A stretch of DNA of 64,000 nucleotides from an uncultured Candidatus Binatia bacterium (lineage in GTDB: Bacteria > Desulfobacterota > Binatia > UBA9968 > JAJDTQ01). The DNA is taken from NCBI GenBank assembly GCA_965242525.1, contig OZ251459.1, forward strand, positions 64,001-128,000. Reading direction: 5' to 3'. Below the pieces are notes generated by a model. The model searched no databases and was not told the DNA's origin. It saw nothing but the letters and a program-made list of their open reading frames with translations. A program made the translations under genes and the position numbers. Of this stretch, positions 2,681-21,507 are shown piece after piece. Position 1 is the first letter of the stretch, and every line of letters begins with the position of its first letter.

Positions 2681-5600
2681 TCAACCGGCAGAAACGCCCC
2701 CGAGCGGTCCCACGCCGAGGACTTCCACGAGCTCGGCGACCACGGCCACGGCGTCCTCGTCCTCCTCCGCCAACTCGATGGGGGCGAACTCGCGGTTGAC
2801 GGGTTCGAGCACGATCCTGACGTGCCGCCAGCCGTTTTCGTCCTCGGCCTTCTCGCTGCGATAGCGCTTCACCGTGAAGCGAAGGCCGGTGTCCGGATCG
2901 ACCGCGTCGCGTAGCTGCACGAGCACCACGCGCCCCTGACGGGAGCCGGTCACGGGATGGGCGAACAGGCAGTAGGCGCCGTCGGGTATGGCGGGTTCCA
3001 TGGACCGTCCGACGACCTTCGCCGCGAACATCCCGGGACGCAGCGAGCGGTGTGTGTCGAGTTCCACCCAGTCCCATTCGGGATCGTCGGGTACGGATCG
3101 AGGGTTGCCGAACGCGCCTGCGGCCGCCTGGAGCGGCGCCAGCGGCACGCAAGTCACGTAGCGTGCAGCGGCCGTCGGCGTCACGAGCCGCAGCGTCCGT
3201 TCGTTCGCCGCCGCGGCGTCGTGGAACCAGGAGCGGTCGTCGCGCACGCGGTTGCGGACGTCGAGCATGTGGAGGTAACCGGCCAGGCGCCGGAAGTGCT
3301 GCACCATGGCGTTCTCGTCGTGGAGGTCGTTGGCGGCGACCTCGATCACGTCGTAGCCGTGGTTGCGCAGCCAGTCGCGGATGGCCCGGTCCCTTTCCGC
3401 GGTTTCGGGGTTGCCGTGGAGGGGGCGGCTCAGGCCGTCCAGGTAGATGCACACGCCCTCGTCCGGCTCGTGGTCCTCGGCGCGGTAGATCACGTCCGGC
3501 GTGGTGGTCCCCAGCGTCCGGTCCAGCCGCACCTGTTGGTTGCGAATTCCCTCGCCGAACCCCGCGGCGCGCAGCAGGTGGCGCAGCCGCGTTTCCGCGT
3601 CGTTGACGGGCATGGCGTCGGCCGCGGGCCTTTCCGCGGGTTGCAGCGGCGGGACGGGGTGCTCGAACGCGAGACGCGCTCCCCACGCGTCGAGCCGCTC
3701 ACCGGCGATCCGGCGATGGAGGAGATGGTGGTAATAGGCGTTGCGGAAGTTCTGGAGGCAGTCGATGCAGGAGGACTCGCACGCCCCGGCACAGTTCTCC
3801 ACCACATCCCGGGCCGCTCCCACGACTTCCGCGAACCGCTCGCACAAACGGTCGAGGAGGCCGGAGCCTCCGGGCATGGGGTCCCACAGCATCGCGTCCA
3901 CCTCCGGGCGCTCCACGTGGCCCATCACCAGTATCTGCAAGTCGTCCACGTGCATGTCCAGCACGTGGGTCGCGCCCAGTCGCAACGCCTCCAGCACGCT
4001 GTACCCGGTGGCGGCGTCGTCGCACGCGGGCAGCGAGAAGGCGTCCGCGGTCACGTCGGCGTAGAAGCCGATGTCTTCCGGGGCGCGCCGGCACCTTTCG
4101 GTATGGGACTTGCGGAACTCCTCGCGCTGGCGCTCGGACGAGAACGGCGAGACGCTTTGGCCGCACACCACGCAGACCGGGTAGCCGAACACTCCCCGTT
4201 TCCTGATGGAAGTCGAAGCTCCCACGTTGACGAGCCGCATCCGCACCCCCCGCCGCAACGACATGGGCCGTGTCCCCCAACGGTACGCTTGTCCGCCGCC
4301 GTGCTGGCCCAGCTCGAGTCCATGGACGGCGACGCCGAGTTGGAACCGCAGGTCCTCTTCGTCGGAGATGTGCGACGTGTGGACGAGGTCGGCGTCGCAG
4401 ATGGCCATGGTCCGCAGGGCTTGTCCGTTGAGGGAGGAACTTGCGTCCCCAGAGGCGGGCTTGACGGCTTGCCGTTCCGCGGAAACTTCGTAAACCGGCG
4501 TCTCGGCCTGCTCTTCGCCGAGGTCCCGGTGGAACCGCCGCGCTACGAAACGGTGGCCGTTGGCGTAGATGAGGTTGCCGGGAACGTATTCCCGCAAGGC
4601 CGCGGCAGGGGGTCGAGGCAAGCGGAAGTCCCTGGCGCCGGCGTGCCAGAAGGGGATCTCCGCCCATCCCACCACCGTGCCGACCTCGAGACCGTAACCG
4701 GGCAGGAAACCCTCGGCCGCCAGCACGTTGAAGGTGTTGGAGTCGTCGTGCCCCTCGGCCTGGCTGCGCCGCCGTTCCTGGCCCTTGAGGCGCTTCACGA
4801 ACCTGTCGCAACGGCGGAACAACGCTTCGTCCTCGGGGTCGAGGGCGCCTTGCCGCTCGCGCCGCTCGTCGAGCCGCGTGATCTGGTCCATGGCCCAACG
4901 CAAGCGCCGGCGCAGACGGGAGACGACGCTTTCCAGATGGTCGGCGAACGTGTCCACGTGGCCGCGGAGCGCCGCGGGTTTCGTCACGTCCTCGTCCTCG
5001 TCCGGCCAACCCTGGTCGAAGACCCGCCCCACGTCCGCGGCCAGGTCGGTTGCGTTGTCCCGCACGAGCTCGCGCAGGGCGCCGAAGTCGAACGGCGCGG
5101 TGCGCAGTTCGCCGTCCCGGAACAGGTACGGCTCCACGCGCCCGGGCAGGCAGCCGTCCAGGACGCCGCGGACCGCGTGGCGTTCCGTTTCCGGGCGGTT
5201 CGGGTCGCGGCCGTATCGGTGCAGCGCGCCGATGACGGTAGCGTGGACGTGCTTGGCCACCATGAACTCGTTGCGCAGGTTGAAGGCCGGGGGATCGATC
5301 CTGCCGGCGAGCAGCTTGGCGGGTTCGGCGAAGTAGGCGCGGTCATGGGACACGGGGCGGCAGTAGGTGACGTCCACCGCCATGCGATGGCGGCGTCCCG
5401 CCCGCCCGGTGCGCTGCCAGTAGTTGGCCGGCAGCGGCGGCACGTTGCGCATGAGCACCGCGTCGAGCTGGCCGATGTCGATGCCGAGCTCCAGCGTCGG
5501 GGTGCACACCAGGCAGTTCACCGCGTCGGTTGCGCCCTTGAACAGGTTCTCCAGGCGTTCGCGCTCGTCGTCGGGAACCATGGCCGTGTGCTCTTCCGGG

Positions 5601-8600
5601 CGCAGCATGGCGTAAACCCCGTCCAGCAGTTGCAGGTCGTAGTGGTCGGGGTCTTCCGGCGCCCATTCCAGGACGCCGTCGCAGCGCCAAGCGGGGCAGC
5701 GGTCGTAGGGCAGGTCCCGCGTGGTGGTGCGGCGGCAACTCCGGCAGCGCCGGACGCCCCGGTTGGGGTTCAGTCCCAGCCGGTCCGCGTTCACCTGGTA
5801 AACGCCGCTGACCCGGGGCAACGGGCGCCCCTTGGACCCCTTGAGGCGCACCGGCGACAGCAGCTTGCGTTCCACCAGGAAGGCGAACAGGCTTTCCAGG
5901 AACGACGGGACGGCTTCCCGGGGCACGCCCCACTTGCCGGCCATCTGGCGCAACGTGGTGTCGCCGCCGTCGCTCAGCCATTGGGTGACCAGGTTGGGCT
6001 TCTCGTGCGGTTCCCGGCGCAGCTTGGTGGCGTTGGGGGACAGGAACCCCGGAAGGTAGCCCTGCTGGATTTCCCGGTCCCCTTCCTGCCACATCTTCGT
6101 GAAGATCTCGTACTCCGGGTCGTGCAGGGCGCCCCTGCGCCGCAGGTAGTCGAGCACGCTGGCCACGCCCTCGCGCAGGCGTTCCGGCGCGAGGCGGAGG
6201 TCGTGGGCGTGTTCCTGTATCCACGGCGCGGCAGCGTCGAGGCCCCGGTATTCGACTTTCATCCGTCCCCAGGGTTCGAGGCCCAGGGCCTGTCGAGCCG
6301 ACAGCGTCACCTCTCGCAGTACCTGGAAGCGCAGGTACTTGCGGCGCTCCTGTGCGTGGCGGTCGCCGCCCCCTTCCTGTCGGGCCACCTGCCAGACTTC
6401 CGGGATCAAGGCTCGCGACAGCGTTGCGTCGGCATCCAGCAGGTCGTCGAGGCAGGCGGTGAGGTCGCCCACCGAGCGCGGCTGGGCCTTGATGCCCTCC
6501 GCCATCAGCGCCCGCAGCCGGAAGCGTCGGGCGTGGTCCTTCATCCAGCCGGCCTGGAACGCCGCGTCCTGGCGGTTATCGCAGAACACCAGCAGGCGTT
6601 GGCGTTCGGCGTGGTGCACCATGTCCTGGGTGAGGACGTGGACGTCGGCCACGTTGATGGCGCGCACCGGTCGCGCGGGTTCGCGGTATCGTCCAACGCC
6701 GGAGCGGCCCGCCGCGCTGCACGACAGGCAACTGGCGAGTTGCCCCGGGTTGTCAGCCTTCGAGTGCACCGCGTGCAGTCGGACCGCGGCGCCGGACTTG
6801 CCGCAATGAAGGCAGCGGGAGGCCGGCAGGGCATGGGCGGCGCCGCAGTGGCGGCAGAAGTGGAGCGCCGCGGTGCGGCGGGCGAGCGGCGTTTCGTCGG
6901 GCGCTTCGTCGTCATCGTCGCCGGCGCCGATGAGGCGGTCCGTCAGAACCACCCGCTTGCCCCCGAGGCTCTCTTCCAGCGGTTCCCACCACGAGCCCGC
7001 GGCCCCGGCCTCGCCGCCGCCCGGCCGCTTGCCGGTGAACAGGAAGTCCTTGAGGAACGCCACGTAGTAGTGCTGTCCGCAAGTGGTGCAGGTGGTGACC
7101 GGGAAGTGGGCTTTGCTCTCGCCTGACTCCCGGATCGCGGTTGCGTCCTCCGCGGCAAGCCAGAGCTTCGGGCCGTCCCACGCCTCCGGGAACGATACCA
7201 CGGCGCCGCCGATGCCGCGCACGAACACGTGGGCCACGGGCCGCAACAGGGGTCGGCCCTCGCGGCGCGCCGCGGCCCCAAGGGTCAGCCAGGCCAGGAC
7301 TTCCGCTTCGGTCACCACCCGCCCCAGGCGTTGCCCCAGGGCTTCGGCCAATTCGTCGAGGGCCTTGGGGGTCGTGAGCGCTTCGTTCAGGCGGAAGACC
7401 AGTTCGTTCCGGGACAACGCATCGTACAGGCGCCGGGGCCAGCCTTCCGGCCCGCCGGCCGCATCGCCATCCAGCTCCCGTCCGGACAGCGAGCGGTAGG
7501 CTCCGCCCACGCCGTCGCCCGACGCCTCTTCGTCTTCCACCGCGCGAACGCAGCGGTCGAGGATCCCGGCTGCGTCCCCGTCGGGTCCGGGCGGTACGGA
7601 ACGGGATTCCGCCCACACTTCGGATTCGTAGTCCTCCTCCACGGTGACCACCGCTTCGGAGGCCACGCCGAAGAAACGCGCGGCGAAATGGCGAGCGGCC
7701 TGCGGGTCTTCGCCATCGACGATGGTGGCGGAAGTGGCGACACAGGTGGTGTGGCCGGGGTCGGCGTTGCAGAACGCGCGCAGCCGCCGGATCAGGCAGG
7801 CCGTTTCCGCGCCCAGGGCGCCGGTGAAGGTGTGGGCCTCGTCGAACACGAGGAAGTCCAGCCGCGCCCCGTCGAACAGTTCCACGTCCTGCTGGCGCGT
7901 GAGCAGCAGTTCGAGTTGCTTCACGTTGGTGAGCAGGATCCGCGGTTGCCGGCCCGGGGCGCGCATGACCTCCCGGGAGCAGACCTCTTCCGCGGGATGG
8001 ACCGTCTCGCCCCTGCCTTCCCCCTGCGTCCGTCGGAGTCGGGCTTCGTAGTCGGCCCGTGACGAACCGGGTCCGAGCCGGACGCCGGCCACTTCCGTCT
8101 CCCGCTCCGGCGTCTTGCCCACGTAGATGCCGAAGGGGATGCCCGCGCCCGCTAGCAGCCCGCGCAGGCGCATGAGTTGATCTTCGGCCAGGGCGTTCAT
8201 GGGATAGACGACGACCGCGCTGACCCCGGGCGGCGCGCCGTCGTCCCGCAGGCGCAGGCATTGGCTGACCATGGGGTAGAGGAAGCACTCGGTCTTGCCC
8301 GAGCCGGTGCCGGTGGAGACCAGGGTGGTCCGCCCTTGGACGATGGCGCGGATGGCGCGTTCCTGATGGCTGTACAGGTGGGTGACGCGCCGCGGGATGC
8401 GCTCGCGCAGGTGGGGGTGGAGCAGCCCTTCGTTCACCAGGGCGTCCACCGAGGCGCCTTCCCGGAACGGGCGCGACAGGCTGACGTAAGGCCCCTTGAG
8501 CAGGGGCGAGCGGCGGGTCTCGTCCAGCGACAGCAGCGCCCGCATCTGTCCGTGCAGTCGCGGGTCGGCAAAGGGATAGGCGGTGAGCTGGTAGCGCAGG

Positions 8601-8647
8601 AAGCTCTTGACGACGTTCTCTGTGTAGGCAATGGGGTTCAGCGCCAT
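2681..8647 (-). CDS. Giant YprA/DruE-type SF2 helicase + DUF1998 Zn domain + Vsr/DUF559-like nuclease + S24 (LexA-type) peptidase domain
   Basis: TGTGSGKTE, DEAH, TSAT, TPTLELGIDIG, QRTGRAGRR; several CxxC pairs; DPMPGGSG...CAGACESSCIDCL; TPDVIY...IYLDG...HG; AAAG...GRSMEP...VKRY. GGAGG RBS upstream. Confidence 0.88.
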   Translation of the reverse strand: MALNPIAYTENVVKSFLRYQLTAYPFADPRLHGQMRALLSLDETRRSPLLKGPYVSLSRPFREGASVDALVNEGLLHPHLRERIPRRVTHLYSHQERAIRAIVQGRTTLVSTGTGSGKTECFLYPMVSQCLRLRDDGAPPGVSAVVVYPMNALAEDQLMRLRGLLAGAGIPFGIYVGKTPERETEVAGVRLGPGSSRADYEARLRRTQGEGRGETVHPAEEVCSREVMRAPGRQPRILLTNVKQLELLLTRQQDVELFDGARLDFLVFDEAHTFTGALGAETACLIRRLRAFCNADPGHTTCVATSATIVDGEDPQAARHFAARFFGVASEAVVTVEEDYESEVWAESRSVPPGPDGDAAGILDRCVRAVEDEEASGDGVGGAYRSLSGRELDGDAAGGPEGWPRRLYDALSRNELVFRLNEALTTPKALDELAEALGQRLGRVVTEAEVLAWLTLGAAARREGRPLLRPVAHVFVRGIGGAVVSFPEAWDGPKLWLAAEDATAIRESGESKAHFPVTTCTTCGQHYYVAFLKDFLFTGKRPGGGEAGAAGSWWEPLEESLGGKRVVLTDRLIGAGDDDDEAPDETPLARRTAALHFCRHCGAAHALPASRCLHCGKSGAAVRLHAVHSKADNPGQLASCLSCSAAGRSGVGRYREPARPVRAINVADVHVLTQDMVHHAERQRLLVFCDNRQDAAFQAGWMKDHARRFRLRALMAEGIKAQPRSVGDLTACLDDLLDADATLSRALIPEVWQVARQEGGGDRHAQERRKYLRFQVLREVTLSARQALGLEPWGRMKVEYRGLDAAAPWIQEHAHDLRLAPERLREGVASVLDYLRRRGALHDPEYEIFTKMWQEGDREIQQGYLPGFLSPNATKLRREPHEKPNLVTQWLSDGGDTTLRQMAGKWGVPREAVPSFLESLFAFLVERKLLSPVRLKGSKGRPLPRVSGVYQVNADRLGLNPNRGVRRCRSCRRTTTRDLPYDRCPAWRCDGVLEWAPEDPDHYDLQLLDGVYAMLRPEEHTAMVPDDERERLENLFKGATDAVNCLVCTPTLELGIDIGQLDAVLMRNVPPLPANYWQRTGRAGRRHRMAVDVTYCRPVSHDRAYFAEPAKLLAGRIDPPAFNLRNEFMVAKHVHATVIGALHRYGRDPNRPETERHAVRGVLDGCLPGRVEPYLFRDGELRTAPFDFGALRELVRDNATDLAADVGRVFDQGWPDEDEDVTKPAALRGHVDTFADHLESVVSRLRRRLRWAMDQITRLDERRERQGALDPEDEALFRRCDRFVKRLKGQERRRSQAEGHDDSNTFNVLAAEGFLPGYGLEVGTVVGWAEIPFWHAGARDFRLPRPPAAALREYVPGNLIYANGHRFVARRFHRDLGEEQAETPVYEVSAERQAVKPASGDASSSLNGQALRTMAICDADLVHTSHISDEEDLRFQLGVAVHGLELGQHGGGQAYRWGTRPMSLRRGVRMRLVNVGASTSIRKRGVFGYPVCVVCGQSVSPFSSERQREEFRKSHTERCRRAPEDIGFYADVTADAFSLPACDDAATGYSVLEALRLGATHVLDMHVDDLQILVMGHVERPEVDAMLWDPMPGGSGLLDRLCERFAEVVGAARDVVENCAGACESSCIDCLQNFRNAYYHHLLHRRIAGERLDAWGARLAFEHPVPPLQPAERPAADAMPVNDAETRLRHLLRAAGFGEGIRNQQVRLDRTLGTTTPDVIYRAEDHEPDEGVCIYLDGLSRPLHGNPETAERDRAIRDWLRNHGYDVIEVAANDLHDENAMVQHFRRLAGYLHMLDVRNRVRDDRSWFHDAAAANERTLRLVTPTAAARYVTCVPLAPLQAAAGAFGNPRSVPDDPEWDWVELDTHRSLRPGMFAAKVVGRSMEPAIPDGAYCLFAHPVTGSRQGRVVLVQLRDAVDPDTGLRFTVKRYRSEKAEDENGWRHVRIVLEPVNREFAPIELAEEDEDAVAVVAELVEVLGVGPLGGVSAG

Positions 8648-8731
8648 CGTGGCATCCTCCGTCTCGTCACCGGAGCCGGCTGACTAGCTGGACCGCGGGC
8701 GGTTCGCGGCGCATGGAGTCGAACGCGGGCG

Positions 8732-9967
8732 TCACCAGCGCCACAGGGCGCTACAGGGTACGGCGTGCAGCCGCTCGCCGAACGGCACCACCGAACCGCC
8801 TGCGTACAGGACGATGCCGCGGACGAAGCGGTCCCCCGCGGCCTGTGCGAGGTCCCGGAGACCCGTGAAGGCGCGCTCGGAGACCGCGCGAGTGGCCTTC
8901 ACTTCGACCCCGACCACCGAACCGGCTCGGTCCTCCAGCACCACGTCCACCTCCCGTTGGTCGTGGGTCCGGTAGTGGAACAGCCGCGGGCGTCGTCGGC
9001 TCCAGCCGGCCTGCTTGAACAACTCCATGATCACGAAGTTCTCCAACAGGCGGCCCGTCGCCTCGTCCGCGGCGCGCCCGGGCGCGCCGCCGAGGTTGTT
9101 CAGGTGCGCCGCCAAGCCCGTGTCGGTCACCAGCAGCTTCGGCGCCTTGGCCATCCGCTTGCCCACGTTGCGAAACCACGCAGGAAGGGAGTGCGCCAGG
9201 AACGCTCCGGCCAGCAGCGCCAGATAGCGTTTGAGGGTGGTCTGCGGCAGCGCCAGGGTGCGGGCGAGGTCTGCGTGGTTCGCCAGTGTGGCCTGCCGTG
9301 CCGCAACCAGGGTGAGCAGGCGCGGCAGTTCGCCGATCCCCTCGACGTTGGCCAAGTCGCGGACCTCGCGCTGCAGGACCGTCTCCACGTAACTCTCGTA
9401 CCAGGCGCGCCGTCGGTGCACAGTGCGGCGCGTCATCATTTCGGGATAGCCGCCGCGGACCGCCCGCGTGAACAGGTCGGCCTGGGATACCGCGGGAGGC
9501 GGCGTGGACGGCAGGTCCGCGTCGAAGACGGCGTCCACGAAGCCTTCCACCGCGCCTTCCAGTTCTCCTTGGGAGAACGGCCACAAGGTGTCGATCTCGA
9601 TGCGGCCGGCGAGCGCCTGCGACAGGTCGGGGACCACGTTGACCGCGGCCGACCCGGTGAGCAGGAAGCGGCCCGGACGGCGGTCGCGGTCGATGGCCAG
9701 CTTGACGGCGCGGAACAGCGCCGGCACGCGCTGTACCTCGTCGATGACCACGGGGCCGGGTTGACCGGCGATGAACTGGTCCGGGTCCGCGCGCGCCGCA
9801 GCCAGCGTCGCCGCATCATCCAGGGTAAGGTACGAAGCTCGATGCGGACCGTGAGCGATTAGCTGCGCGAGAGTGCTCTTGCCGGACTGCCGCGGCCCCT
9901 GGATGAACACCGCCGGGGTATCCGCCAGCGCCTCCAGGACAACGGTCTCGATATTCCTCCGCTGCAT
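8732..9967 (-). CDS. AAA_14 ATPase with DUF4143 (second, divergent paralog)
   Basis: GPRQSGKS, IDEVQ, LTGSA, GGYP, KLLVTDTGL, EVDVV...VEVK. Confidence 0.88.
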   Translation of the reverse strand: MQRRNIETVVLEALADTPAVFIQGPRQSGKSTLAQLIAHGPHRASYLTLDDAATLAAARADPDQFIAGQPGPVVIDEVQRVPALFRAVKLAIDRDRRPGRFLLTGSAAVNVVPDLSQALAGRIEIDTLWPFSQGELEGAVEGFVDAVFDADLPSTPPPAVSQADLFTRAVRGGYPEMMTRRTVHRRRAWYESYVETVLQREVRDLANVEGIGELPRLLTLVAARQATLANHADLARTLALPQTTLKRYLALLAGAFLAHSLPAWFRNVGKRMAKAPKLLVTDTGLAAHLNNLGGAPGRAADEATGRLLENFVIMELFKQAGWSRRRPRLFHYRTHDQREVDVVLEDRAGSVVGVEVKATRAVSERAFTGLRDLAQAAGDRFVRGIVLYAGGSVVPFGERLHAVPCSALWRW

Positions 9968-10005
9968 GGCTGAATTTTAGCCAGCTAGTGGTTGATTTGC
10001 AACCA
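9967..10005 (-). promoter_or_regulatory. Near-consensus sigma70 promoter (predicted leaderless mRNA) covered by two 17-bp palindromes
   Basis: Minus strand: TTGCAA (10002-9997), 17 bp, TAAAAT (9979-9974), 6 bp, ATG. Boxes TGGCTGAATTTTAGCCA (9967-9983) and TGGTTGATTTGCAACCA (9989-10005). Confidence 0.7.
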
Positions 10006-10084
10006 ACGACGTCTTCACACACGAGAGGATCCGTCCCCGGGACAGATGTTGTGACGCTTGGGCTGGCTGCCTGTGCTGCAAGGT

Positions 10085-10114
10085 TTGCCACAAGACTTTT
10101 CAGTTTGGTATAAA
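10085..10114 (+). promoter_or_regulatory. Sigma70-like promoter of the XRE-ImmA/PIN pair
   Basis: TTGCCA (10085-10090), 18 bp, TATAAA (10109-10114) with an extended -10 TG, in an AT-rich intergenic patch. Confidence 0.6.
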
Positions 10115-10168
10115 ATGAAATCAAGACAAGTTTCGAGTTCGGTCATGTCAAGGATGGAGCAAGGGACG

Positions 10169-11302
10169 ATGGCGGATGAGACCTGCATTGCGGCGAACGT
10201 TGTCCGGCTGCGGCTGGACCGGGGGCTGACGCAGGGGGCTCTTGCGGAGCGGGCCGGGATTTCGCGGGTGGCGCTTGGCCAGATCGAGCGGGGAGCGGCC
10301 GTTCCGCGGGCGCGTACCCTCGCTGACTTGGCGAGAGCGCTGGCAGTCCCGGTGGGAGAGTTGGTCACCCCTGTCCGGCCTCTCGAAAGCGTCCGGTTTC
10401 GCGCCCGGACGCGGGTCCCGGGGCGGGAGCAGATCTTGGCAGTGGTCTCCAAGTGGCTGGGAGCCTATGTCGAGCTGGAAACCGACCTGAACGACCGCTC
10501 TCCGTTCCGCTTCGAGGCCGCTGCAACGGGCGGCGGAAGTCCCTCGGAAGTTGCGCGAGCCGCTCGTCGGGCGGTCGATCTCAGACCGGAGGAACCCGTG
10601 CGGGACATCTGTGGGTTACTGGAGGAAAACGGCGTGAAGCTCCTTCTCCTCGAGACCACTCGCGATTCCTTTTTCGGGCTGAGCGTGGGGAAGGGTGACG
10701 GTGGCCCCGCGGTGGTGGTCAACACTTGGAGTCGGATCTCGGTGGAGCGCTGGATCTTTACCGCCGCGCACGAACTCGGTCACTTGCTGTTGCATCCTTA
10801 CGAGTACCGACGAGACGCCACCGAGATGCGGGCGGAGCCGGAGCGGGGTGCCGACGCCTTCGCGGGTGAGTTCCTGATGCCGGAGACGGCGTTTGCGGAA
10901 GAGTGGGAGGCGACCCGTGGACGCTCCCTGCTGGCGCGTGTCCTCAAGGTCAAGCGGATCTTCCGGGTGAGCTACAAGACCGTGCTCCATCGGTTGGTGG
11001 AGTCGGGGCGGGAGACGTCCGCGGTCTGGCCTACGTTCCAGGGCCAGCACCGCAGCTACTTCGGCCAAACGCTTCGCAAGACCGACGAACCTGAAGCCAT
11101 CAGGAAGGGTGAGTTCGCGTGGAACTGGAGCCGCTCGGGAGAACCTGCCAGCCTCTCCGAGCACGACTTCGTCGAAGATCGGTTGTCACGGCTCGTGAGG
11201 CAGGCAGTCGAGAGTGAACGCATCTCGCTCGGACGCGCCGCCGAAATCCTGGGTCTCACGAGGGAGCGGATGAGAAAGCAGGCAGGTGAGTGGGCCAAGT
11301 AG
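10169..11302 (+). CDS. XRE helix-turn-helix fused to ImmA/IrrE metallopeptidase
   Basis: HTH RGLTQGALAERAGISRVALGQIERG; zinc motif FTAAHELGH; ADAFAGEFLMP; C-terminal ISLGRAAEILGL. Start chosen at ATG 10169. Confidence 0.9.
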   Translation: MADETCIAANVVRLRLDRGLTQGALAERAGISRVALGQIERGAAVPRARTLADLARALAVPVGELVTPVRPLESVRFRARTRVPGREQILAVVSKWLGAYVELETDLNDRSPFRFEAAATGGGSPSEVARAARRAVDLRPEEPVRDICGLLEENGVKLLLLETTRDSFFGLSVGKGDGGPAVVVNTWSRISVERWIFTAAHELGHLLLHPYEYRRDATEMRAEPERGADAFAGEFLMPETAFAEEWEATRGRSLLARVLKVKRIFRVSYKTVLHRLVESGRETSAVWPTFQGQHRSYFGQTLRKTDEPEAIRKGEFAWNWSRSGEPASLSEHDFVEDRLSRLVRQAVESERISLGRAAEILGLTRERMRKQAGEWAK

Positions 11303-11814
11303 GACCAGTGCAGGCCGGGGCCACGGTCTTGCTCGCCGATGCGGACGTGCTCATCGACTACCGGGACTCCGATCTGACCATGCTCAAGCTCGTGGCGCAG
11401 CATGTGGGGAGGGTAGCCGTCATACCGCCCGTGCTCGACGAGGTGCATGGCCTCACCGCGGGACGATGCGCGCGACTCGGCATCGAGGTCGTCGAAGTCG
11501 AGACGGAGCAGATGCTTCAGGCCGCGGAGGTCGGGTCGAGCGTCTCGTTCAACGACCGCCTTTGCATGGTGGTGTGCCGTGGGGAAGGTTGGACATGCGT
11601 CACCAACGACGGCGCCCTCCGACGGCTGTGCAAACGCCACGGTGTCAAGTCACGTTATGGCCTTGGCCTCATGGTGGATCTGGCCGCGGCTGGTGTTCTC
11701 ACGCGAGGCCAGGCAGTGGCGGTTGCCCGCAAGATTCAAGCCTCGAATCCACTGCACATCAATGAACGGGTGATGAAGCGTTTCCTGAACGCTCTGGCCA
11801 AAATCAGCCGATGA
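11290..11814 (+). CDS. PIN-fold ribonuclease (putative toxin partner of the XRE-ImmA protein)
   Basis: LLADADVLID...VLDEV...SFNDRLC...VTNDGALRR acidic pattern; overlaps the 3' end of the ImmA gene. Confidence 0.75.
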   Translation: MGQVGPVQAGATVLLADADVLIDYRDSDLTMLKLVAQHVGRVAVIPPVLDEVHGLTAGRCARLGIEVVEVETEQMLQAAEVGSSVSFNDRLCMVVCRGEGWTCVTNDGALRRLCKRHGVKSRYGLGLMVDLAAAGVLTRGQAVAVARKIQASNPLHINERVMKRFLNALAKISR

Positions 11815-11895
11815 TCCGCGGACTTCCGGGTAAACGCCGTCGTTGGCTCTCTGGCAAGAGGGCTGCGTAGAGCGGCGTCCCTGTTTCGGGCGGCG

Positions 11896-17731: not shown

Positions 17732-18112
17732 TCACAGGACGCCACCCAGATCGAATGCGTCGATCTGCCGCATTATGCCGTCCATCGTATCGCGCCCTGT
17801 CACCCTCGAAACGGGCGCGTCAGGCCCTCGACGGGCGAAAATCACGTACTGGATCAAGCGGTCGTCGAGGAATTGAAGTCCGATGTGCGCGTCGTTCCCA
17901 TCGTTCCAGACAGCACGAAGATTTCCGTTTTCCAGCAGGACAAGGCGTCCGCGTCTCGTAAACGGGTTCTTCTTCAGAAAGTTCCAAAAGGCCGTCTCGG
18001 ATGCCTCACTGAGTGAGTACCCTTCGAGTTCGGCCTGCTCTTTCAGGACGTTGATCCGGCTTTCGTACAGGTTGTGACGCTCCCCTCCCACGCGAAGAAC
18101 TCCTATTCCCAT
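17732..18112 (-). CDS. Hypothetical protein (126 aa) between the helicase and methyltransferase genes
   Basis: Lower-GC, globular-looking frame from ATG 18112; the ORF track's longer N-terminus overlaps the SNF2 gene. Confidence 0.55.
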   Translation of the reverse strand: MGIGVLRVGGERHNLYESRINVLKEQAELEGYSLSEASETAFWNFLKKNPFTRRGRLVLLENGNLRAVWNDGNDAHIGLQFLDDRLIQYVIFARRGPDAPVSRVTGRDTMDGIMRQIDAFDLGGVL

Positions 18113-18180: not shown

Positions 18181-21100
18181 TCAACCCGTTTCCGGCAACC
18201 GTACCTCGATGGCCACCGGGAACACGTGGGCGTCTCCCGCCAGCGCGAAGCGTGCGGGCAAGAGGCGGTCCAGGATCCGGGCGCGTTCCTGCTGCAACTG
18301 TTCGCGGATCTCTTCGTAGTGGGCGAGGCGGCGCTTGAGTTCCCGTTCCTTTTCTTCCAGGGACCGCTCCATTTCCGCGAGCCGCTCGGTGGCGTCGAAG
18401 AGTTCGCCCTGGCGTTGTCTTTGGCCGAGGGCTTCGATCTCTCGGTTCAGCCGTGTGGCCGTGGATTGCTCGATGAGCGTGGAGACCTCGCCTTGGCGTT
18501 GCCGGTAGCGTTCGTCCTCCCGTTTGCGGGCGGCTTCGCCGTCCACCGCCAGTTGGCGGCGCAGCCGCCCGGTCACCTGTGTCCCGTAGCCGCGCAGCCA
18601 TGTGCGCAGGCCGTTGCGGACGTCTTCGAGGACCTCCCGGGCGCGCTCCCGGTGGGCGGGGTCCGCGGCGTCCCGGGCGCCTCGCCGGGACCGGGCAGGG
18701 ACGTGCGGCAGCGGCTCTCCCAGGTCGCCGTTCCGCACCGGGAAGGCCAGGGTGCGCACCCAGCGGTGGAAGGTCTCCCGCAGCTCGTTCACAGCCAGTT
18801 CCTCGACGCTGAGCAGGACCACGGCTTCGGCGTCCGCGGGAACGGCGCCCAGCCGCACCGTCCAGCGCGAGACCTGCTGCTCGCCGGGGTAGCGGCGGCG
18901 CGTCAGTAAACCCAGGGCCCGCCGCATCAGCGGATGCGCCAGGTGCAGGAGCCGAGCGTCGCGTCGGGGCAGGAACACGCTCAAGCGCCCGAGGCGCTGG
19001 ATGAACGGTTCCGCGCTGAAGGCGAGCAGCGGCATGGGGCCTTGCCCGCCTCCGTGGACCGGCAGGCGCACGGCTTCGTCGATGACGTCGCGCCAGCCGC
19101 GCAGGTCCGGTTGGGCCATCCGGTAGAATCCCGGTTGCGCCGCCGCCCGTAGCTGCGGTCTGCCGCTGTCGGAAGTCGTCAGGGCGGTTTCGAGGGTGTC
19201 GCCGAGGGCTTGCGGGTCCAGGTCGATCTCCGCGGCCAGGACCTCGAGCAACGCTGCTTCCCCCTCTGCCTCGCGGCCCAACGACACCCTGGCGTCCGCG
19301 TCCATGGACGCGGCGCCCAGGACGGCCCGGAGGCCGGCATCCAGGTCGGCCCGGACCCGCGCCGCGTCCTCGCCTCCGATCAGGCGGCGGTGCGTGGCGC
19401 GGTCGAACAGTTCGTTCACCGAGCCCAGGTCTGCGCGGATTTCGTCGGCCTTGCGGACCACGTGGTCGAGGAAGCGCAGGTCCGGGTCGGTTGCGCTGAA
19501 GAAGTGGTGCACGGTCACGTCACGGGCCTGTCCGTAGCGGTCCAGGCGACCGTTCCGCTGCTCCAGCCTCGACGGGTTCCACGGGCAGTCGTAGTGCAGC
19601 AGGTAGCGCGCGGTGCGGTGCAGGTTGAGACCTTCGGAAGCGGCGTCCGTGGCCACCAGGACGCGCACCGGGTCGTCAGGGTCGTTGAAGGCCGCCTTGA
19701 CGTTCTCGCGGTCCGTGTCGTTCATGCCCTCGGCCCCGCCGCTGCCGAACAGGGTGAGCACGTGTTCCGGGGAGTAGCGTTCCGCCAGTCGTCGGGCAAG
19801 GTAGTCGAGCGTGGTCTTGTACTCGGTGAAGACGATCAGCCGTTCGTCGGCGCGGAACCCGCCGCTGGTCCGGAGAAGGCGTTCGATCAAGGCGGTGAGG
19901 GCGTCGAAACGGGTATCGACTCCGGGCGTCTGGCGGACCACCGGCGGGCCGTCGAGGACGAAGCCGAGGGCGTCCAGGGCGCGCTCGATGCCTGCGATTT
20001 CGTCCTGCACGTGGTCCGCGAAGTTCTTCAGCCACGCGCCCACCACGGTGGCCGCGGTGGCCTCGCGCTGCTGCGTTTCCCGGTCGTCTCCGGTCTCCTG
20101 CCGCAGGGACCGTTCCGCGGCCGTCAGCGCAGCCTCCGAGGCAGCGGACTCGTCGGCGAAACCCTGGCGCGCCCGGCGCCAGGATTCGGCGAACGCGGTG
20201 GGGCAGGAGAGCAGCCGCTTGCCCAGGATCTCCACCGCGAAGCTGCCCGCGCGGCGCCGCGGCCGGTCGCCTTGGGCCACGAGCCGGCGCACGGCTTTGC
20301 GAAAGGCGTCGAACGCGGCCACGAGACCGGCTTCCCGCAGCTCGGTGCGGAGGGTGAGGGCCTCGGGCGGCCGCCGTTGGCAGAAGCGGGGCGCGGGGGC
20401 CGTCCCGGGCACGGGGTCTTCTTCCCGCTCATGCCGCGTCCCTGCGTCCGTCCGCCCGGGGGGTTGGTCGATGTGGCGTTTCAGCCGGCGCACCACCACG
20501 TCGTCCACCCGTGCGCGCATGGCCGGGGTCATCTCGCTGGTGCGGGTGAAGCGCACGGGGTCGAGCATTTCCAGGAGGCCGGTGAAAGAGCGCGTGTGGC
20601 CGTTGTGCGGCGTGGCGGAGAGGAACAGTCGGTGCTCGAAGCGGGGCGCCGCCAGGCGCAGGGTCTCGCACAGGCCGCTGTCCTCGCCGAAGGGAGACGG
20701 CATGAGGTTGTGGCATTCGTCCACGATCAACAGGTCCCAGGGCAGGTGCGGGGAGCCGTCCGGCGTTTGGCAGGCGGCCAGGAACTGCTCGCGCACGTCG
20801 GGCTGGCGCAGGTAGTGGTAGGAGGCGACGATGCGGCTGAACGAGCGCCAGGGGTTGGCGTCCATGCCGAGACGACGGCGCAGGCGCTCGACGCCCTGAC
20901 GGTCCACCACGTCGAAGCGCAGCGAGAACTTCTCCCACAACTCGTCCCGCCATTGCTGGCGCAGGGAAGCGGGCGTGAGCACCAGCACGCGCCGGATGCG
21001 GCGGCGCAGCAGCAACTCGGTGAGGATCAGGCCGGCCTCTACCGTTTTGCCGAGACCCACGTCGTCCGCGAGGAGCAGGTTTACCCTCGGCATGCGCAGG

Positions 21101-21507
21101 GCCTTCAGCAGCGGCATGAGCTGGTAGTCCTCCACGCGCACGCCGCCGTGGAAGGGGCTGGCGAGGGGCTCGCGGTTCAGCGGGCCGGAGCCGTCCGGGT
21201 CCAGGTAGGGCGACAGCGCCGTCCAGCGCGCCGCCCGCAGGAGCGCGTCGAACTCGCCGGACGGCATGGGGTCCCGGCCGGCGTCCGGCAACGCGGTAGG
21301 CTCCAGGAGAGGGGGCTCATGTTCGATCTCCCACAGCAGCCGTTCCGCGGGCGGCTCGTGCAGGTCCTTGTACTCCACGTGCACCAGGTGCAGCCGCCCG
21401 GAATCGCCGTCGAACGGTTCTACTGCGGCCACCACGCCGAGCCGGTTGCGCACGGTGGCGATCATGCCGGCCCGAGGGACGGCGTATGGGGCGGCCGGGA
21501 CGCTCAT
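18181..21507 (-). CDS. drmD: SNF2-family helicase, DISARM DrmD-like
   Basis: LLADDVGLGKTVEAG, DECH, LSATPHNG, ATDAASEGLNL, WNPSRLEQRNGRLDRYGQ; coiled-coil C-terminus; lies upstream of an N6 methyltransferase. Confidence 0.85.
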   Translation of the reverse strand: MSVPAAPYAVPRAGMIATVRNRLGVVAAVEPFDGDSGRLHLVHVEYKDLHEPPAERLLWEIEHEPPLLEPTALPDAGRDPMPSGEFDALLRAARWTALSPYLDPDGSGPLNREPLASPFHGGVRVEDYQLMPLLKALRMPRVNLLLADDVGLGKTVEAGLILTELLLRRRIRRVLVLTPASLRQQWRDELWEKFSLRFDVVDRQGVERLRRRLGMDANPWRSFSRIVASYHYLRQPDVREQFLAACQTPDGSPHLPWDLLIVDECHNLMPSPFGEDSGLCETLRLAAPRFEHRLFLSATPHNGHTRSFTGLLEMLDPVRFTRTSEMTPAMRARVDDVVVRRLKRHIDQPPGRTDAGTRHEREEDPVPGTAPAPRFCQRRPPEALTLRTELREAGLVAAFDAFRKAVRRLVAQGDRPRRRAGSFAVEILGKRLLSCPTAFAESWRRARQGFADESAASEAALTAAERSLRQETGDDRETQQREATAATVVGAWLKNFADHVQDEIAGIERALDALGFVLDGPPVVRQTPGVDTRFDALTALIERLLRTSGGFRADERLIVFTEYKTTLDYLARRLAERYSPEHVLTLFGSGGAEGMNDTDRENVKAAFNDPDDPVRVLVATDAASEGLNLHRTARYLLHYDCPWNPSRLEQRNGRLDRYGQARDVTVHHFFSATDPDLRFLDHVVRKADEIRADLGSVNELFDRATHRRLIGGEDAARVRADLDAGLRAVLGAASMDADARVSLGREAEGEAALLEVLAAEIDLDPQALGDTLETALTTSDSGRPQLRAAAQPGFYRMAQPDLRGWRDVIDEAVRLPVHGGGQGPMPLLAFSAEPFIQRLGRLSVFLPRRDARLLHLAHPLMRRALGLLTRRRYPGEQQVSRWTVRLGAVPADAEAVVLLSVEELAVNELRETFHRWVRTLAFPVRNGDLGEPLPHVPARSRRGARDAADPAHRERAREVLEDVRNGLRTWLRGYGTQVTGRLRRQLAVDGEAARKREDERYRQRQGEVSTLIEQSTATRLNREIEALGQRQRQGELFDATERLAEMERSLEEKERELKRRLAHYEEIREQLQQERARILDRLLPARFALAGDAHVFPVAIEVRLPETG

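Follow-up and report, generated by a model that had tools for sequence, protein, structure and literature searches.

The window analyzed here, 64,000 nucleotides from a contig of an uncultured Candidatus Binatia bacterium (OZ251459.1, positions 64,001 to 128,000; contig C1 below), carries three large genes, armA, armB and armC. All three open reading frames (ORFs) are intact and lie on the minus strand, exactly at the coordinates and with the lengths that a sequence-only reading had given (Table 1). That reading had treated them as one co-oriented set. The common orientation stands, but the genes are not contiguous: the armA-armB gap (627 bp) contains a small conserved ORF, and the armB-armC gap (3.25 kb) contains three further genes, of which two run on the opposite strand. 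Since opposite-strand genes separate armC from armA and armB, transcription of all three as one operon is impossible.

Table 1. Features of the locus; coordinates are positions in the window.
Feature	Coordinates	Strand	Evidence
TPR-repeat gene, island edge	60..1061	-	Pfam TPR matches
Second AAA_14 + DUF4143 gene (PDC-S01-like), convergent with armC, extra cargo	1450..2643	+	Pfam, PADLOC 7e-55
armC, YprA/DruE-like SF2 helicase-nuclease, 1988 aa	2681..8647	-	Pfam, PADLOC, motifs
LexA-like S24 domain of armC, ~residues 1831-1981	2705..3157	-	Pfam, Foldseek, VIA-align
Ala1843-Gly1844 codons, predicted LexA-type self-cleavage site, motif PLxAAAGxF	3116..3121	-	Invariant residues
Vsr-like PD-(D/E)xK nuclease domain of armC, ~residues 1680-1794	3266..3610	-	Fold match
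DUF1998 / MrfA zinc-binding domain of armC, residues 1553-1631	3755..3991	-	Pfam MZB 5.9e-9
AAA_14 + DUF4143 ATPase, 411 aa, PADLOC candidate defence gene PDC-S01	8732..9967	-	Pfam, PADLOC
Divergent intergenic region, AAA_14/DUF4143 gene to HTH-M78 gene	9968..10168	.	Sole sigma-70-like match in 8500-12100
Fused XRE-HTH + ImmA/IrrE (M78) metallopeptidase gene, RmrA-like, CapH/CapP-like	10169..11302	+	Pfam, PADLOC
PIN-domain gene, 174 aa, presumed toxin/effector of embedded pair	11290..11814	+	Pfam PIN 3.8e-5
armB, PglX-like N6-adenine DNA methyltransferase, 1885 aa	11896..17553	-	Pfam, PADLOC, motifs
Small conserved ORF, ~126 aa, armA-armB gap	17732..18112	-	tblastn, residues 16-126 conserved
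armA, SNF2/RapA-like helicase (DrmD/BrxHII-like), 1108 aa	18181..21507	-	Pfam, NCBIfam, PADLOC
M20 peptidase gene, island edge, divergent from armA	21901..23175	+	Pfam Peptidase_M20 8.7e-17

ArmA contains the Pfam domains SNF2-rel_dom and Helicase_C, and its DECH box at residue 263 is intact. It scores 646.3 bits against the NCBIfam model DISARM_DrmD (cut-off 610) and matches DrmD (1.3e-189) and BrxHII (6.9e-65) in PADLOC; the match to RapA reaches 3.8e-45. Homologues of the small ORF downstream of armA were found with tblastn in the loci L011, L015/L025, L019, L023 and L029 (59-74% identity over 111-117 residues), and in L011, L015/L025 and L019 they likewise lie between armA and armB. The ORF has no Pfam match at E<=0.1. 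ArmB was identified by the Pfam Eco57I methylase domain (1.3e-16) and by the PADLOC models REase_MTase_IIG (1387 bits) and DrmMI (5.1e-118). Its SAM motif DPACGSG (residue 653) and its NPPW motif (residue 964) are intact, and Pfam and PADLOC scans found no nuclease domain in the protein.

Pfam searches revealed DEAD, Helicase_C, MZB/DUF1998 and Peptidase_S24 domains in ArmC. Walker A (GTGSGKT, residue 113) and DEAH (residue 269) are intact, and after eight CxxC motifs come DUF1998, the Vsr-like nuclease and finally the S24 tail. A six-frame search of the genome placed the MZB match at C1:67755-67991; it is the only one of the genome's three MZB matches in the window and lies inside armC, and none of the seven PLDc_2 matches falls within C1:64001-128000. 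Both searches agree with the earlier statement that the window holds neither a PLD gene nor a separate DUF1998 gene. The nuclease-like domain proposed for this helicase was recovered in a structure model, in which residues 21-135 of the model resemble I-Bth0305I (3r3p_B; Z 10.9, rmsd 2.6, 98 aligned residues) as well as Vsr (1cw0_A, Z 8.5) and 3hrl_A (Z 8.5), pointing to a Vsr-like fold. D1718, D1737 and H1744 are invariant in alignments of 15 and of 23 sequences.

Class I DISARM consists of drmD-drmMI-drmA-drmB-drmC, and a helicase of about 2000 aa with a fused DUF1998 is typical of Druantia DruE. With class I DISARM the locus has in common a YprA-family helicase, an SNF2 gene above the NCBIfam DrmD equivalog cut-off and a methyltransferase matching DrmMI (5e-118). 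DISARM, however, encodes a separate DrmB and the PLD protein DrmC, whereas here DUF1998 is fused and a PLD DrmC is missing; moreover, in PADLOC the helicase is far closer to DruE (2.6e-99) than to DrmA (1.9e-14). DruE is likewise a YprA helicase of about 2000 aa with fused DUF1998 and zinc modules (PADLOC DruE3/DruE1 about 1e-98), but it ends in a PLD domain where ArmC has Vsr and S24, and the E. coli protein is only 21-38% identical to ArmC, in three pieces. No DruA-D or DruH partner is present among the scanned neighbours; the genes linked to this helicase encode a methyltransferase and an SNF2 protein.

The combination found here corresponds to ARMADA, for which Bell et al. (2025; 10.1101/2025.09.15.676423) describe a BrxHII-like SNF2 protein (ArmA), a PglX-like methyltransferase (ArmB) and a YprA helicase with C-terminal Vsr (ArmC). 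The locus is a member of this family of methylation-based anti-phage systems, Type I. The sequence-only reading had described a methylation-based relative of DISARM whose DrmA/B/C are replaced by a single YprA/DruE-like helicase that carries a fused DUF1998 and a Vsr-like nuclease. This fits the ARMADA definition, and the name ARMADA, which that reading had mentioned, was correct. The suspicion that the core might not be wholly new was also justified, since ArmC has full-length relatives on contigs that Table S1 of Bell et al. lists as "ARMADA Type I helicase" carriers, namely L069 (Syntrophus buswellii CP175563.1, 66% identity) and L099 (VXOC01000021.1, 68% identity), both over residues 1-1978.

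The neighbourhood survey proposed along with that reading confirmed that the three genes are linked in other genomes. Among 80 related loci, with ArmC identities of 63-80%, 47 have armB upstream of armC in the same orientation, and two more carry armA-armB downstream of armC. Neither armA nor armB was found in the DNA covered for 28 loci, about 12 of which have less than 4.2 kb upstream. Across the linked loci identities are 55-77% for ArmA, 55-72% for ArmB and 63-80% for ArmC. These numbers bear on whether the three genes are merely neighbours in a defence island, armB encoding a Type IIG-like restriction-modification enzyme, armA a stand-alone SNF2 helicase and armC a Druantia-like DruE. Such a view could appeal to the best PADLOC names (REase_MTase_IIG, DrmD and DruE, in a 2023 release without ARMADA models) and to the separation of armC from armA and armB. 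Linkage of the genes across many phyla, similar evolutionary rates of the three proteins as judged from the identity ranges, an ArmB in which no nuclease domain was found and the lack of a Druantia partner gene among the scanned neighbours make it very improbable, as does the reported need for all genes in the E. coli Type II system.

Anti-phage activity is described for that E. coli Type II system only; there, all four genes as well as the Walker and NPPW motifs are required, and defence is non-abortive (Bell et al., 2025; PMC13463889). By analogy we infer the function of the present Type I locus, that is, defence, methylation motif and target. The Type II locus (NCTC 12900; EDL933 z5899-z5902) has the same armA-armB-armC order and a homologous domain logic. 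ArmA, ArmB and ArmC each match their Type II namesake best among six EDL933 proteins (DruH, DruE, ArmA-D), but identities are only 23-35%; the ArmB proteins share 23% over 709 aa, and the best OI-172 match of ArmA is likewise ArmA, with 32-35% over the motor motifs. Type II additionally requires armD (GajB-like + RelE) as a fourth gene, and its ArmC is described as ending in Vsr-EEP-Vsr instead of Vsr-S24. Domain and PADLOC scans of the neighbours found no ArmD (UvrD/RelE) gene after armC. With Type I the locus shares the three components, including the NPPW motif of ArmB and the fused OB-CON-DUF1998 and Vsr of ArmC, and the absence of ArmD. It differs in its gene order from the usual armC-first arrangement, which Bell et al. 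[quoted passage not shown] It further adds the S24 domain, which lies outside the text and domain table of Bell et al. We put the probability at about 80% that an ARMADA Type I anti-phage system with the order armA-armB-armC, an S24-tailed ArmC and independent junction cargo explains the locus as a whole.

Throughout the genus the locus is flanked by the same pair of genes, M20 and TPR. The M20 flank is 90-92% identical in congeners; a 294-aa ORF at 21504-22388 on the minus strand was rejected as an antisense shadow of this gene, since its conservation is limited to the overlap with M20 (residues 1-163). On the other side the TPR gene follows armC in the congeneric copies G002, G012, G014, G019 and G022, and a remnant in G006. 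IS insertions and deletions in congeneric copies indicate that the locus is frequently lost. The second AAA_14 gene sits between armC and this conserved flank. It is missing from the position in six congeneric loci with an armC-TPR junction, where the TPR gene comes directly after armC, and an 82% identical homologue lies upstream of ArmC in L035.

The genes between armB and armC likewise vary. The AAA_14 gene upstream of armC (Pfam AAA_14 3.7e-24, DUF4143 1.2e-40; PADLOC PDC-S01 5.6e-164) ends 84 bases before armC on the same strand; the compared loci have no close homologue at this position, only 28-35% matches in L035 and L053. The divergent HTH-M78 gene encodes HTH_3 (2.6e-12) and Peptidase_M78 (2e-17) domains. 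Its ORF opens at 10058, but homologues align from residue 38, so that translation probably starts at ATG 10169. In PADLOC the protein matches RmrA best (5.7e-34), followed by capP (3.1e-16) and capH (4.9e-6). Upstream of ArmC, homologues with 71-76% identity occur in L034, L035, L040, L061, L068, L075, L081 and L094, and one with 49% identity in L093. The PIN gene scores 24.7 bits in Pfam (cut-off 23.6) and has no PADLOC match. It shares 13 bases with the end of the HTH-M78 gene and runs towards armB in convergent orientation. Its homologues adjoin an HTH-M78 gene in L034, L035 and L075 (70-75% identity) and in L093 (44%).

The sequence-only reading had taken the embedded genes for regulators. 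In the form considered here, the HTH-M78 protein would be a CapH/CapP-like regulator of armC, and the PIN and AAA_14 genes would regulate ARMADA as well. The capP and capH matches and the divergent layout, with the AAA_14 gene running into armC, are in line with this. The sole promoter-like site in the gap points towards AAA_14 and armC: a sigma-70-like TTGCAA-17-TAAAAT on the minus strand (10002-9974), 7 bases upstream of ATG 9967, is a consensus match only and the one match in 8500-12100, where shuffles lead to an expectation of 0.2. The layout, with HTH-M78 on one strand and cargo followed by armC on the other, recurs in L034, L040, L068, L075 and L081, and the identity of 71-76% across phyla suggests that the HTH-M78 gene travels with ARMADA. 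Yet in nine of the 47 loci where armB precedes armC, the junction is tight (93-413 bases) and lacks such a gene, an M78 ORF is present in only 10 of 38 gap-bearing loci, and the genes downstream of HTH-M78 differ, being PIN here and a short pAgo in L068 and L081. Together with the missing AAA_14 homologue and a best match to a protein of the stand-alone RosmerTA (RmrT/RmrA) system, this renders a regulatory role unlikely, and the genes are better read as defence or toxin-antitoxin cargo. The HTH-M78 protein resembles RmrA, but its partner here is a PIN protein; unlike CBASS CapH and CapP, it combines HTH and M78 in a single polypeptide. The armB-armC junction is a variable bay for independent cargo, common to many ARMADA I loci; like the S24 tail, it goes unmentioned in the sections consulted of the ARMADA papers (Bell et al., 2025; PMC13463889).

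The C-terminal tail of ArmC gives a modest sequence signal for Peptidase_S24 (residues 1870-1971; 27.4 bits, cut-off 23.3). Foldseek matched it to LexA, lambda cI and UmuD at probability 1.00 (E from 3e-5), and VIA-align to the LexA C-terminal domain (3k2z_B, Z 11.6; 1jhc_A, Z 11.4). Among PDB sequences, neither a 23-sequence profile nor a single sequence retrieved LexA at E<=1 and E<=10; the tail is too distant from S24 proteins of solved structure for detection by sequence only. It has the fold, the Ser-Lys dyad and the Ala-Gly site of LexA, lambda cI and UmuD, but a helicase-nuclease of 1830 residues replaces the DNA-binding repressor N-terminus. Ser1882 (within GRSMEP) is kept in 23 of 23 aligned sequences and Lys1927 (within TVKRY) in 22, the exception being L068 with Arg. 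A1842, A1843 and G1844 are invariant in 15/15 and 23/23 sequences. The Ala-Gly site lies about 38 residues ahead of the Ser, in the stretch aligned with LexA residues 75-204 of 1jhc_A. In the Vsr-S24 model (mean pLDDT 74.8), values drop below 50 at model residues 187-192, directly after the predicted scissile bond.

Of the 80 related loci, 55 carry the tail and 17 lack it, with a stop codon directly behind the Vsr domain; eight were assigned to neither class. Tail-less relatives keep 66-75% ArmC identity elsewhere, and a 68-row tree requires at least six gains or losses, which marks the tail as an optional regulatory add-on. The same module (57-68% identity, same motifs including PLxAAAGxF) ends other restriction enzymes: a Type ISP-like enzyme of 2347 aa in the same genome, the Type I HsdR proteins P0228 and P0237 and the Type_ISP_C protein P0221. 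The S24 fusion, which had been considered possibly new, is absent from the main text and domain Table S2 of Bell et al. but is widespread, this locus being one case among many.

The C-terminal domains of LexA and cI double as dimerisation modules, Vsr-type nucleases nick one strand, and DNA cutting by Type I and Type ISP enzymes takes two motors. The S24 domain, whose fold is that by which LexA, cI and UmuD' dimerise, might hence not cleave at all but only dock two ArmC nickases for double-strand breaks, the more so as two-motor enzymes carry the same tail. The invariant Ser and Ala-Ala-Gly and the nearly invariant Lys (22/23), conserved over at least 10 phyla and three different host enzymes, are not expected for a mere interface, and we regard this explanation as improbable. 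Judging from these residues, ArmC probably cleaves its own tail, the role of which is likely RecA-coupled autoproteolytic control of restriction. The genome encodes RecA, a LexA-sized and a UmuD-sized S24 gene; a LexA-like protein working without RecA has been reported (PMC7101444).

From homology we propose that ArmB would write an N6-adenine mark on host DNA and that ArmC, a YprA-type helicase with an OB-CON-DUF1998 canopy, would load on invading DNA that lacks the mark, probably, like DrmAB and DruE, at single-stranded or forked intermediates. ArmC would then translocate and cut with its Vsr-like nuclease, with the RapA/BrxHII-like SNF2 motor ArmA as a required partner. RecA-ssDNA filaments would trigger self-cleavage at A1843-G1844 and detach a tail of about 145 residues. 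As a tentative preference, this cleavage would lower restriction while chromosomal DNA is damaged and temporarily lacks methylation.

The same structural and residue evidence would also fit an infection sensor, in which RecA filaments arising from phage replication or from ArmC's own unwinding cause the loss of an auto-inhibitory tail, releasing the nuclease and switching restriction on. Druantia III DruE, a relative of ArmC, has been reported to act on ssDNA-containing replication intermediates, and a DNA-damage-type regulator (HTH-M78; capP-like, 3.1e-16) lies beside armC here and in several relatives. The direction of the effect is not readable from sequence. An indispensable inhibitor, however, would be hard to lose at least six times without autoimmunity, and the 17 tail-less relatives are otherwise well conserved, which makes a sensor rather unlikely. 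For the favoured role, the alleviation of Type I EcoKI by ClpXP, acting on HsdR (PMC4231737), offers an analogy, as a translocating restriction motor comes under proteolytic control there as well once host sites appear unmodified. That protease is external, whereas ArmC is predicted to contain its own RecA-coupled protease, and tail cleavage may provide ArmC with a built-in restriction alleviation.

The three large genes of the locus are intact with their motifs kept, and their coordinates and lengths are exactly those claimed in the sequence-only reading, which had proposed a DISARM-related defense locus with a single helicase-nuclease. They are co-oriented, as also claimed, but not adjacent, with other genes in between. 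ARMADA systems are defined by ArmA, a BrxHII/RapA-like SNF2 helicase, ArmB, a PglX-like methyltransferase, and ArmC (text and tables of Bell et al., bioRxiv 10.1101/2025.09.15.676423). ArmC is described there as a YprA helicase nearest to Druantia DruE with a fused OB-CON-DUF1998 module and a C-terminal Vsr nuclease, carrying BrxA-like, zinc beta-barrel and MarR-like inserts between the RecA lobes (Bell et al., 2025). In the window, the armA product is a BrxHII/RapA-like SNF2 helicase (RapA match 3.8e-45; PADLOC BrxHII 6.9e-65) that also scored 646.3 bits with the NCBIfam DISARM DrmD model (equivalog cut-off 610). The armB product is a PglX-like adenine methyltransferase of the Eco57I/PglX/DrmMI kind (Pfam Eco57I; PADLOC DrmMI and REase_MTase_IIG, weak PglX match 2.7e-5), with DPACGSG at residue 653 and NPPW at residue 964. 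ArmC combines in a single ORF a DEAD domain (Walker A at residue 113, DEAH at residue 269), Helicase_C (1024-1086), a fused MZB/DUF1998 module (1553-1631) and Peptidase_S24 (1870-1971); its top PADLOC names were DruE3 and DruE1 (about 1e-98; DruE 2.6e-99), compared to 1.9e-14 for DrmA. An insert of about 540 residues separates the DEAD domain (end about 480) from Helicase_C (start about 1024). It contains five of the eight CxxC motifs of ArmC (520-968), the sixth (1045) being located within Helicase_C, and the CxxC cysteines of the insert are invariant in 15 sequences.

Core genes of the locus and genes lodged between armB and armC (window coordinates)
Feature	Coordinates	Strand	Remarks
armA, SNF2 helicase gene	18181-21507	minus	1108 aa
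armB, methyltransferase gene	11896-17553	minus	1885 aa
armC, helicase gene	2681-8647	minus	1988 aa
AAA_14 + DUF4143 ATPase gene	8732-9967	minus	ends 84 bases before armC start; PADLOC PDC-S01 5.6e-164
Fused XRE-HTH + M78 (ImmA/IrrE) peptidase gene	ORF opens 10058, likely start 10169	plus	Pfam; PADLOC RmrA 5.7e-34
PIN gene	11290-11814	plus	13-base overlap with HTH-M78 gene

[quoted passage not shown] A Pfam and PADLOC scan of the neighbors detected no ArmD after armC; an AAA_14/DUF4143 gene on the other strand (1450-2643, plus) and then a TPR gene are located there instead. The locus thus shares with ARMADA Type I the three components and the lack of armD, whereas the usual armC-first order is replaced by armA-armB-armC. 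It differs from the Type II system of E. coli in having no armD, and its three proteins are only 23-35% identical to ArmA, ArmB and ArmC of strain EDL933, whose Type II system is the experimentally tested one and which were nonetheless the best match of each among six EDL933 proteins compared; the EDL933 proteins have the same accession numbers as in Table S2 of Bell et al. Species-representative genomes were scanned with an alignment of ArmC relatives, yielding 417 confirmed relatives, the best 80 of which were used. ArmC relatives in the loci L069 (Syntrophus buswellii CP175563.1) and L099 (VXOC01000021.1) are 66% and 68% identical, respectively, over residues 1-1978, and both contigs appear in Table S1 of Bell et al. 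as bearing an 'ARMADA Type I helicase'. Based on domain content, gene set and identity to these Table S1-listed contigs, the locus is filed as ARMADA Type I with reversed gene order.

Two related systems were rejected. Class I DISARM has its own separate DrmB (DUF1998) gene and the PLD nuclease DrmC, whereas the window has neither: none of the seven PLDc_2 matches of the genome lies within it, and its sole MZB match lies inside armC, just as the absence of both genes had been claimed. Druantia was discarded since no DruA-D or DruH was among the PADLOC matches of the neighbors scanned; Druantia Type III DruE ends in PLD domains, whereas ArmC of the window ends in Vsr and S24. With the ARMADA domain set and relatives on Table S1 contigs, the sequence-only reading of the locus proved correct, and because the core is already a known system, its novelty had been rated too high. 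Taken alone, the core is one further ARMADA Type I locus beside the thousands listed and carries little weight.

Linkage of armA, armB and armC is conserved, as in ARMADA systems, and the expected association of the genes was borne out in the neighborhoods of homologs. Among the best 80 of the 417 relatives, 47 have armB ahead of armC on the same strand, and armA precedes armB wherever the 10 kb examined extend far enough; in two others (L039 and L053), the only ones with the order armC-armA-armB, armA-armB lie downstream. Within the same 80 loci, armA was seen without armB in L026, L032 and L082; neither gene was present in the DNA examined of 28, about 12 of them on contigs with less than 4.2 kb upstream. 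The best 80 relatives are spread over at least ten phyla at 63-80% identity, and therefore the locus moves horizontally. The plasmid collection contained 194 records matching ArmC, only one of which, from Synechocystis, covers at least 80% of the protein (46.5% identity, in six pieces, the match ending at residue 1829); the ArmC clade is not typical plasmid cargo in the collection searched.

In the window's genus, a full or contig-cut ortholog with 76-80% identity was found in 8 of 25 genomes, including the window's own, and the 16 genomes searched beyond the genus yielded no such ortholog. Where flanks of congeneric loci were examined, ARMADA is bordered by the M20 and TPR genes that flank it in the window. 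The copies in several congeners are decaying: genome G022 (locus L015) has a Mutator-family transposase inside armB and a same-sized ORF inside armA, G014 (L017) an rve integrase inside armB, G010 (L021) a molybdopterin-oxidoreductase/TauD-type ORF in the stead of the absent armB, and G006 (L023) armC fragments only.

The armB-armC interval of the window (8648-11895) holds three genes, which encode the AAA_14/DUF4143, HTH-M78 and PIN proteins. The best PADLOC match of the HTH-M78 protein is RmrA of RosmerTA, CapP and CapH being weaker. RosmerTA consists of RmrA (HTH and M78) beside the toxin gene RmrT; here the RmrA-like protein is encoded beside a PIN gene, the product of which gave no PADLOC match. 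Both AAA_14/DUF4143 genes, the one in the interval and the one after armC (7e-55), fit PDC-S01, a PADLOC candidate family. The sole sigma-70-like site of the stretch, a consensus match only, faces the AAA_14 gene from a divergent region of 201 bases.

Of the 47 loci with armB upstream, 9 have armB and armC spaced by 93-413 bases, and the other 38 by 0.95-9.4 kb. From these 38 gaps, which we term the bay, 133 non-overlapping ORFs of at least 140 aa were taken (a subset of the 360 ORFs with 100 aa or more picked from all upstream regions) and scanned with Pfam, a sample of them also with PADLOC. The bay contains Septu PtuA/PtuB in L031 and a similar pair in L046, Gabija GajA/GajB in L066, a short pAgo with its Aga nuclease partner in L068 (PADLOC pAgo_I 4.9e-177, Aga_REase 8.5e-151) and a similar pair in L081, and a TIR-NACHT protein in L047. 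AbiEii is found in five loci, Fic in three and M78 peptidase ORFs in ten; a Schlafen/AlbA_2 protein in eight loci is usually accompanied by HATPase_c_4 and often directly follows armB. Further contents are a HEC-03B-like ATPase with an RNA ligase (L057, L103; a DarG-like macro domain also in L057), ThiF-JAB with DUF6527 (L043, L049), patatin, RES, Uma2 and C5 methyltransferase proteins and transposases (L049, L091), and many bay ORFs have no Pfam match. In two Vicinamibacterales loci (L068:4393-7169 and L081:5195-7974), the short pAgo and Aga_REase genes lie directly downstream of an HTH-M78 gene.

The HTH-M78 gene of the window recurs with 71-76% identity in eight loci and 49% in a ninth, with varying genes downstream, and no close homolog of the AAA_14 gene was detected at its bay position in the loci compared. 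Its divergent layout relative to AAA_14-armC would suit a control of that transcript by the HTH-M78 protein, and the embedded genes had indeed been taken for regulators. However, bay contents vary across loci, the genes after HTH-M78 differ and AAA_14 is without a close homolog in this place; we therefore read the HTH-M78, PIN and AAA_14 genes as probable cargo instead of ARMADA regulators, and consider such transcriptional control unlikely. The internal cargo bay is widespread and testable. In genome G012, plus-strand ORFs occupy the place of the AAA_14 gene (L034:7651-9581, the same DNA as L011:17655-19588); one of them (L011:17764-18234) has a SMODS nucleotidyltransferase domain (3e-26), so that a CBASS-like cyclase adjoins the HTH-M78 gene.

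Between armA and armB, a gap of 627 bases contains a small ORF (17732-18112, minus, about 126 aa) that drew no Pfam match and shares 59-74% identity with ORFs in six other loci, those of L011, L015/L025 and L019 lying at the same junction; it could represent a fourth component or else small cargo. A 294-aa ORF (21504-22388) overlapping the start of armA was discarded as a candidate fourth gene, since its conservation is confined to the part antisense to the M20 peptidase gene, which lies divergently upstream of armA. Giant proteins are encoded in or beside ARMADA Type I loci at L011:3883-10095 (G012; 2070 aa), L029:1432-7620 (2063 aa) and L037:5331-9395 (1355 aa), with HTH_upst_double_PIN and PIN-TPR-GreABC domains; the G012 gene lies on the opposite strand, with armA and armB on either side. 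Rfam gave nothing in 1-30000 at gathering scores. Neither direct nor inverted repeats bounding cargo or island were detected in 1-24000, where chance-level pairs and a tandem array were the only matches; the array (1110-1225, 29-nt unit, about 4 copies, 84-86% alike in a 58-nt register) is flanked by the TPR gene and the second AAA_14/DUF4143 gene. The G+C content of the window is about 70%, with a dip to 0.64 at 10-16 kb and its lowest patch (0.575) at 28-30 kb. In this patch, a 464-aa AAA_15/AAA_21 and DUF3696 ATPase lies ahead of a 170-aa ORF that had no Pfam match (27524-29424, minus); the pair looks like a second, separate defense-type module, and a similar ATPase in L057 is a PADLOC HEC-03B match.

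ArmC residues 1660-1988 were aligned with the same stretch of 22 loci, and the resulting 23-sequence alignment was used for structure prediction; three further loci were left out, as their stretches ran into the stop codon. The model had a mean pLDDT of 74.8, with values below 50 at model residues 1-20, 80-86, 187-192 and 325-329. Comparison with known structures without Foldseek pre-filtering matched two domains. The first (model 21-135) resembles the catalytic domain of I-Bth0305I (3r3p_B; Z 10.9, rmsd 2.6, 98 aligned) as well as Vsr (1cw0_A, Z 8.5) and 3hrl_A (Z 8.5); 3hrl and 3r3p are also PDB entries given for ArmC Vsr domains in the text and tables of Bell et al. (10.1101/2025.09.15.676423). 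Residues D1718, D1737 and H1744 are invariant in alignments of 15 and 23 sequences, and ArmC is thus predicted to bear an active C-terminal Vsr-type PD-(D/E)xK nuclease.

The second domain (model 172-322) matches LexA (3k2z_B, Z 11.6, rmsd 2.8, 123 aligned; 1jhc_A, Z 11.4, spanning LexA 75-204) as well as lambda repressor and UmuD', and LexA, cI and UmuD were Foldseek matches of probability 1.00 (E from 3e-5). The tail of ArmC is thus predicted to have the fold of the LexA C-terminal domain. S1882 of the GxSMEP motif and A1842-A1843-G1844 of PLxAAAGxF are kept in all 23 sequences, and K1927 of TVKRY in 22, with Arg in L068. We take S1882, K1927 and A1843-G1844 to be the LexA catalytic and cleavage residues, from motif resemblance and from the range of the structural alignment; the tail would accordingly combine a Ser-Lys dyad with a predicted Ala-Gly scissile bond upstream, as in S24 proteins, where this bond is Ala-Gly or Cys-Gly. 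Pfam Peptidase_S24 exceeded its cut-off on ArmC by only 4 bits. PDB chains searched by sequence alone gave no match at E<=1 with the 23-sequence profile and two chance matches (E>0.5) with the S24 stretch, so that no S24 protein was recovered. The link to LexA is based on Pfam, fold and motifs.

The tail is present in 55 of the best 80 of the 417 relatives; 17 of the 80 have a stop at most 10 codons past the Vsr domain (about residues 1800-1820), and 8 are beyond judgement (6 cut by the contig end, 2 broken). Of 8000 candidates scored in a search with ArmC 1640-1988, 1402 proteins reached E<=1e-3, and most of the 120 matches listed are about 1980 aa long with PF00717. On a tree of ArmC residues 1-1760 (68 rows, split or short matches left out), the well-supported branches demand at least six gains or losses of the tail, which is therefore a discrete, dispensable add-on.

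The same module ends other restriction motors. A genome search matched ArmC residues of about 1815-1980 to the ends of other long frames in the genus with 50-60% identity. Outside the window, the own genome encodes a Type ISP-like single-chain restriction-modification enzyme of 2347 aa (L024:5064-12107; G000:C1 about 2421063-2428106) with PLDc_2, a ResIII/SNF2 motor, N6_Mtase/Eco57I, Type_ISP_C and S24, the S24 module being 58% identical to that of ArmC. A tail-only search among longer proteins gave 2042 matches at E<=1e-10 among 6639 candidates. Two Type I HsdR subunits (P0228 and P0237; 1205 and 1182 aa; HSDR_N, SWI2_SNF2, T1R_D3-like and S24) are among the 120 matches listed, as are a Type_ISP_C and S24 protein (P0221) and 664-aa proteins of no evident kind (P0181). 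When seven such tails were aligned, all of them shared the cleavage-site strand, the serine and the lysine. The 2347-aa enzyme is followed by a HATPase_c gene (727 aa) and an ORF of 433 aa that lacks Pfam matches, and frames of 1111-1272 aa with an ArmC-type tail were seen in the genomes G002, G003, G006, G007, G010 and G025.

S24, LexA or peptidase is mentioned neither in the text or domain table S2 of Bell et al. (figures and PDF supplement aside) nor in the passages of the mBio paper PMC13463889 that were covered. A literature search, subscription journals aside, found nothing linking S24/LexA-like domains to YprA, DUF1998, Druantia, HsdR or restriction alleviation. The suggestion that the S24 fusion is perhaps new holds insofar as it is undescribed in the ARMADA text and table S2, but the fusion is widespread and not special to this locus. 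The LexA-like tail common to ArmC, HsdR and Type ISP enzymes is undescribed in the literature covered, widespread and testable.

From the observed domain fold, motifs, modularity, conservation and gene linkage we infer how core and tail would work. According to the text of Bell et al. (10.1101/2025.09.15.676423), phage protection by ARMADA is demonstrated for the E. coli Type II system only, which protects from phage directly and not by abortive infection and requires all of its genes, NPPW in ArmB and the Walker motifs in both ArmA and ArmC. In the window's system, ArmB would mark self DNA, and ArmC would load on unmarked foreign DNA, translocate and cut it with its Vsr domain, with ArmA assisting in some manner. 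All hallmarks of a self-cleaving S24 protein appear to have been kept under selection on three different host enzymes, and it seems probable from the motifs that the ArmC tail cleaves itself, most simply on RecA filaments. Beside these kept residues, a tail that merely pairs two nickases and does not cleave itself is quite improbable. RecA, a LexA-sized and a UmuD-sized S24 gene are present in the window's genome, RecA indicating co-protease availability only.

ArmC, HsdR and Type ISP enzymes would all be methylation-guided, ATP-driven motors and, as such, a threat to a chromosome with unmodified sites after damage and repair. How hosts stay safe from methylation-based translocating nucleases after damage or replication is a long-standing question, solved so far, to our knowledge, only for a few Type I enzymes via ClpXP. 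By analogy, tail cleavage may tentatively be proposed to lower restriction during the SOS state; the same danger from Type I enzymes is met by ClpXP-mediated restriction alleviation (PMC4231737, in the part covered). The opposite outcome, in which cleavage activates ArmC in infected cells, is rather doubtful. In a bolder reading, to which we assign as a whole a probability of about 40%, the LexA-like module of about 165 residues, with the PLxAAAGxF strand, the GxSMEP serine and the TVKRY lysine, would be a portable RecA-sensing, self-cleaving switch that bacteria attached to ATP-driven restriction motors from no fewer than three unrelated classes, namely ARMADA ArmC, the HsdR of Type I enzymes and Type ISP enzymes. 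It would wire restriction directly to SOS, as built-in alleviation to the benefit of a damaged, under-methylated chromosome or as infection-triggered nuclease release, and the armB-armC bay of ARMADA Type I would gather other defense systems.

The bay is a practical lead to new defense genes. If this bolder reading is true, a self-cleaving LexA-type domain on ArmC, HsdR and Type ISP enzymes would connect SOS with restriction in a direct and genetically simple way.
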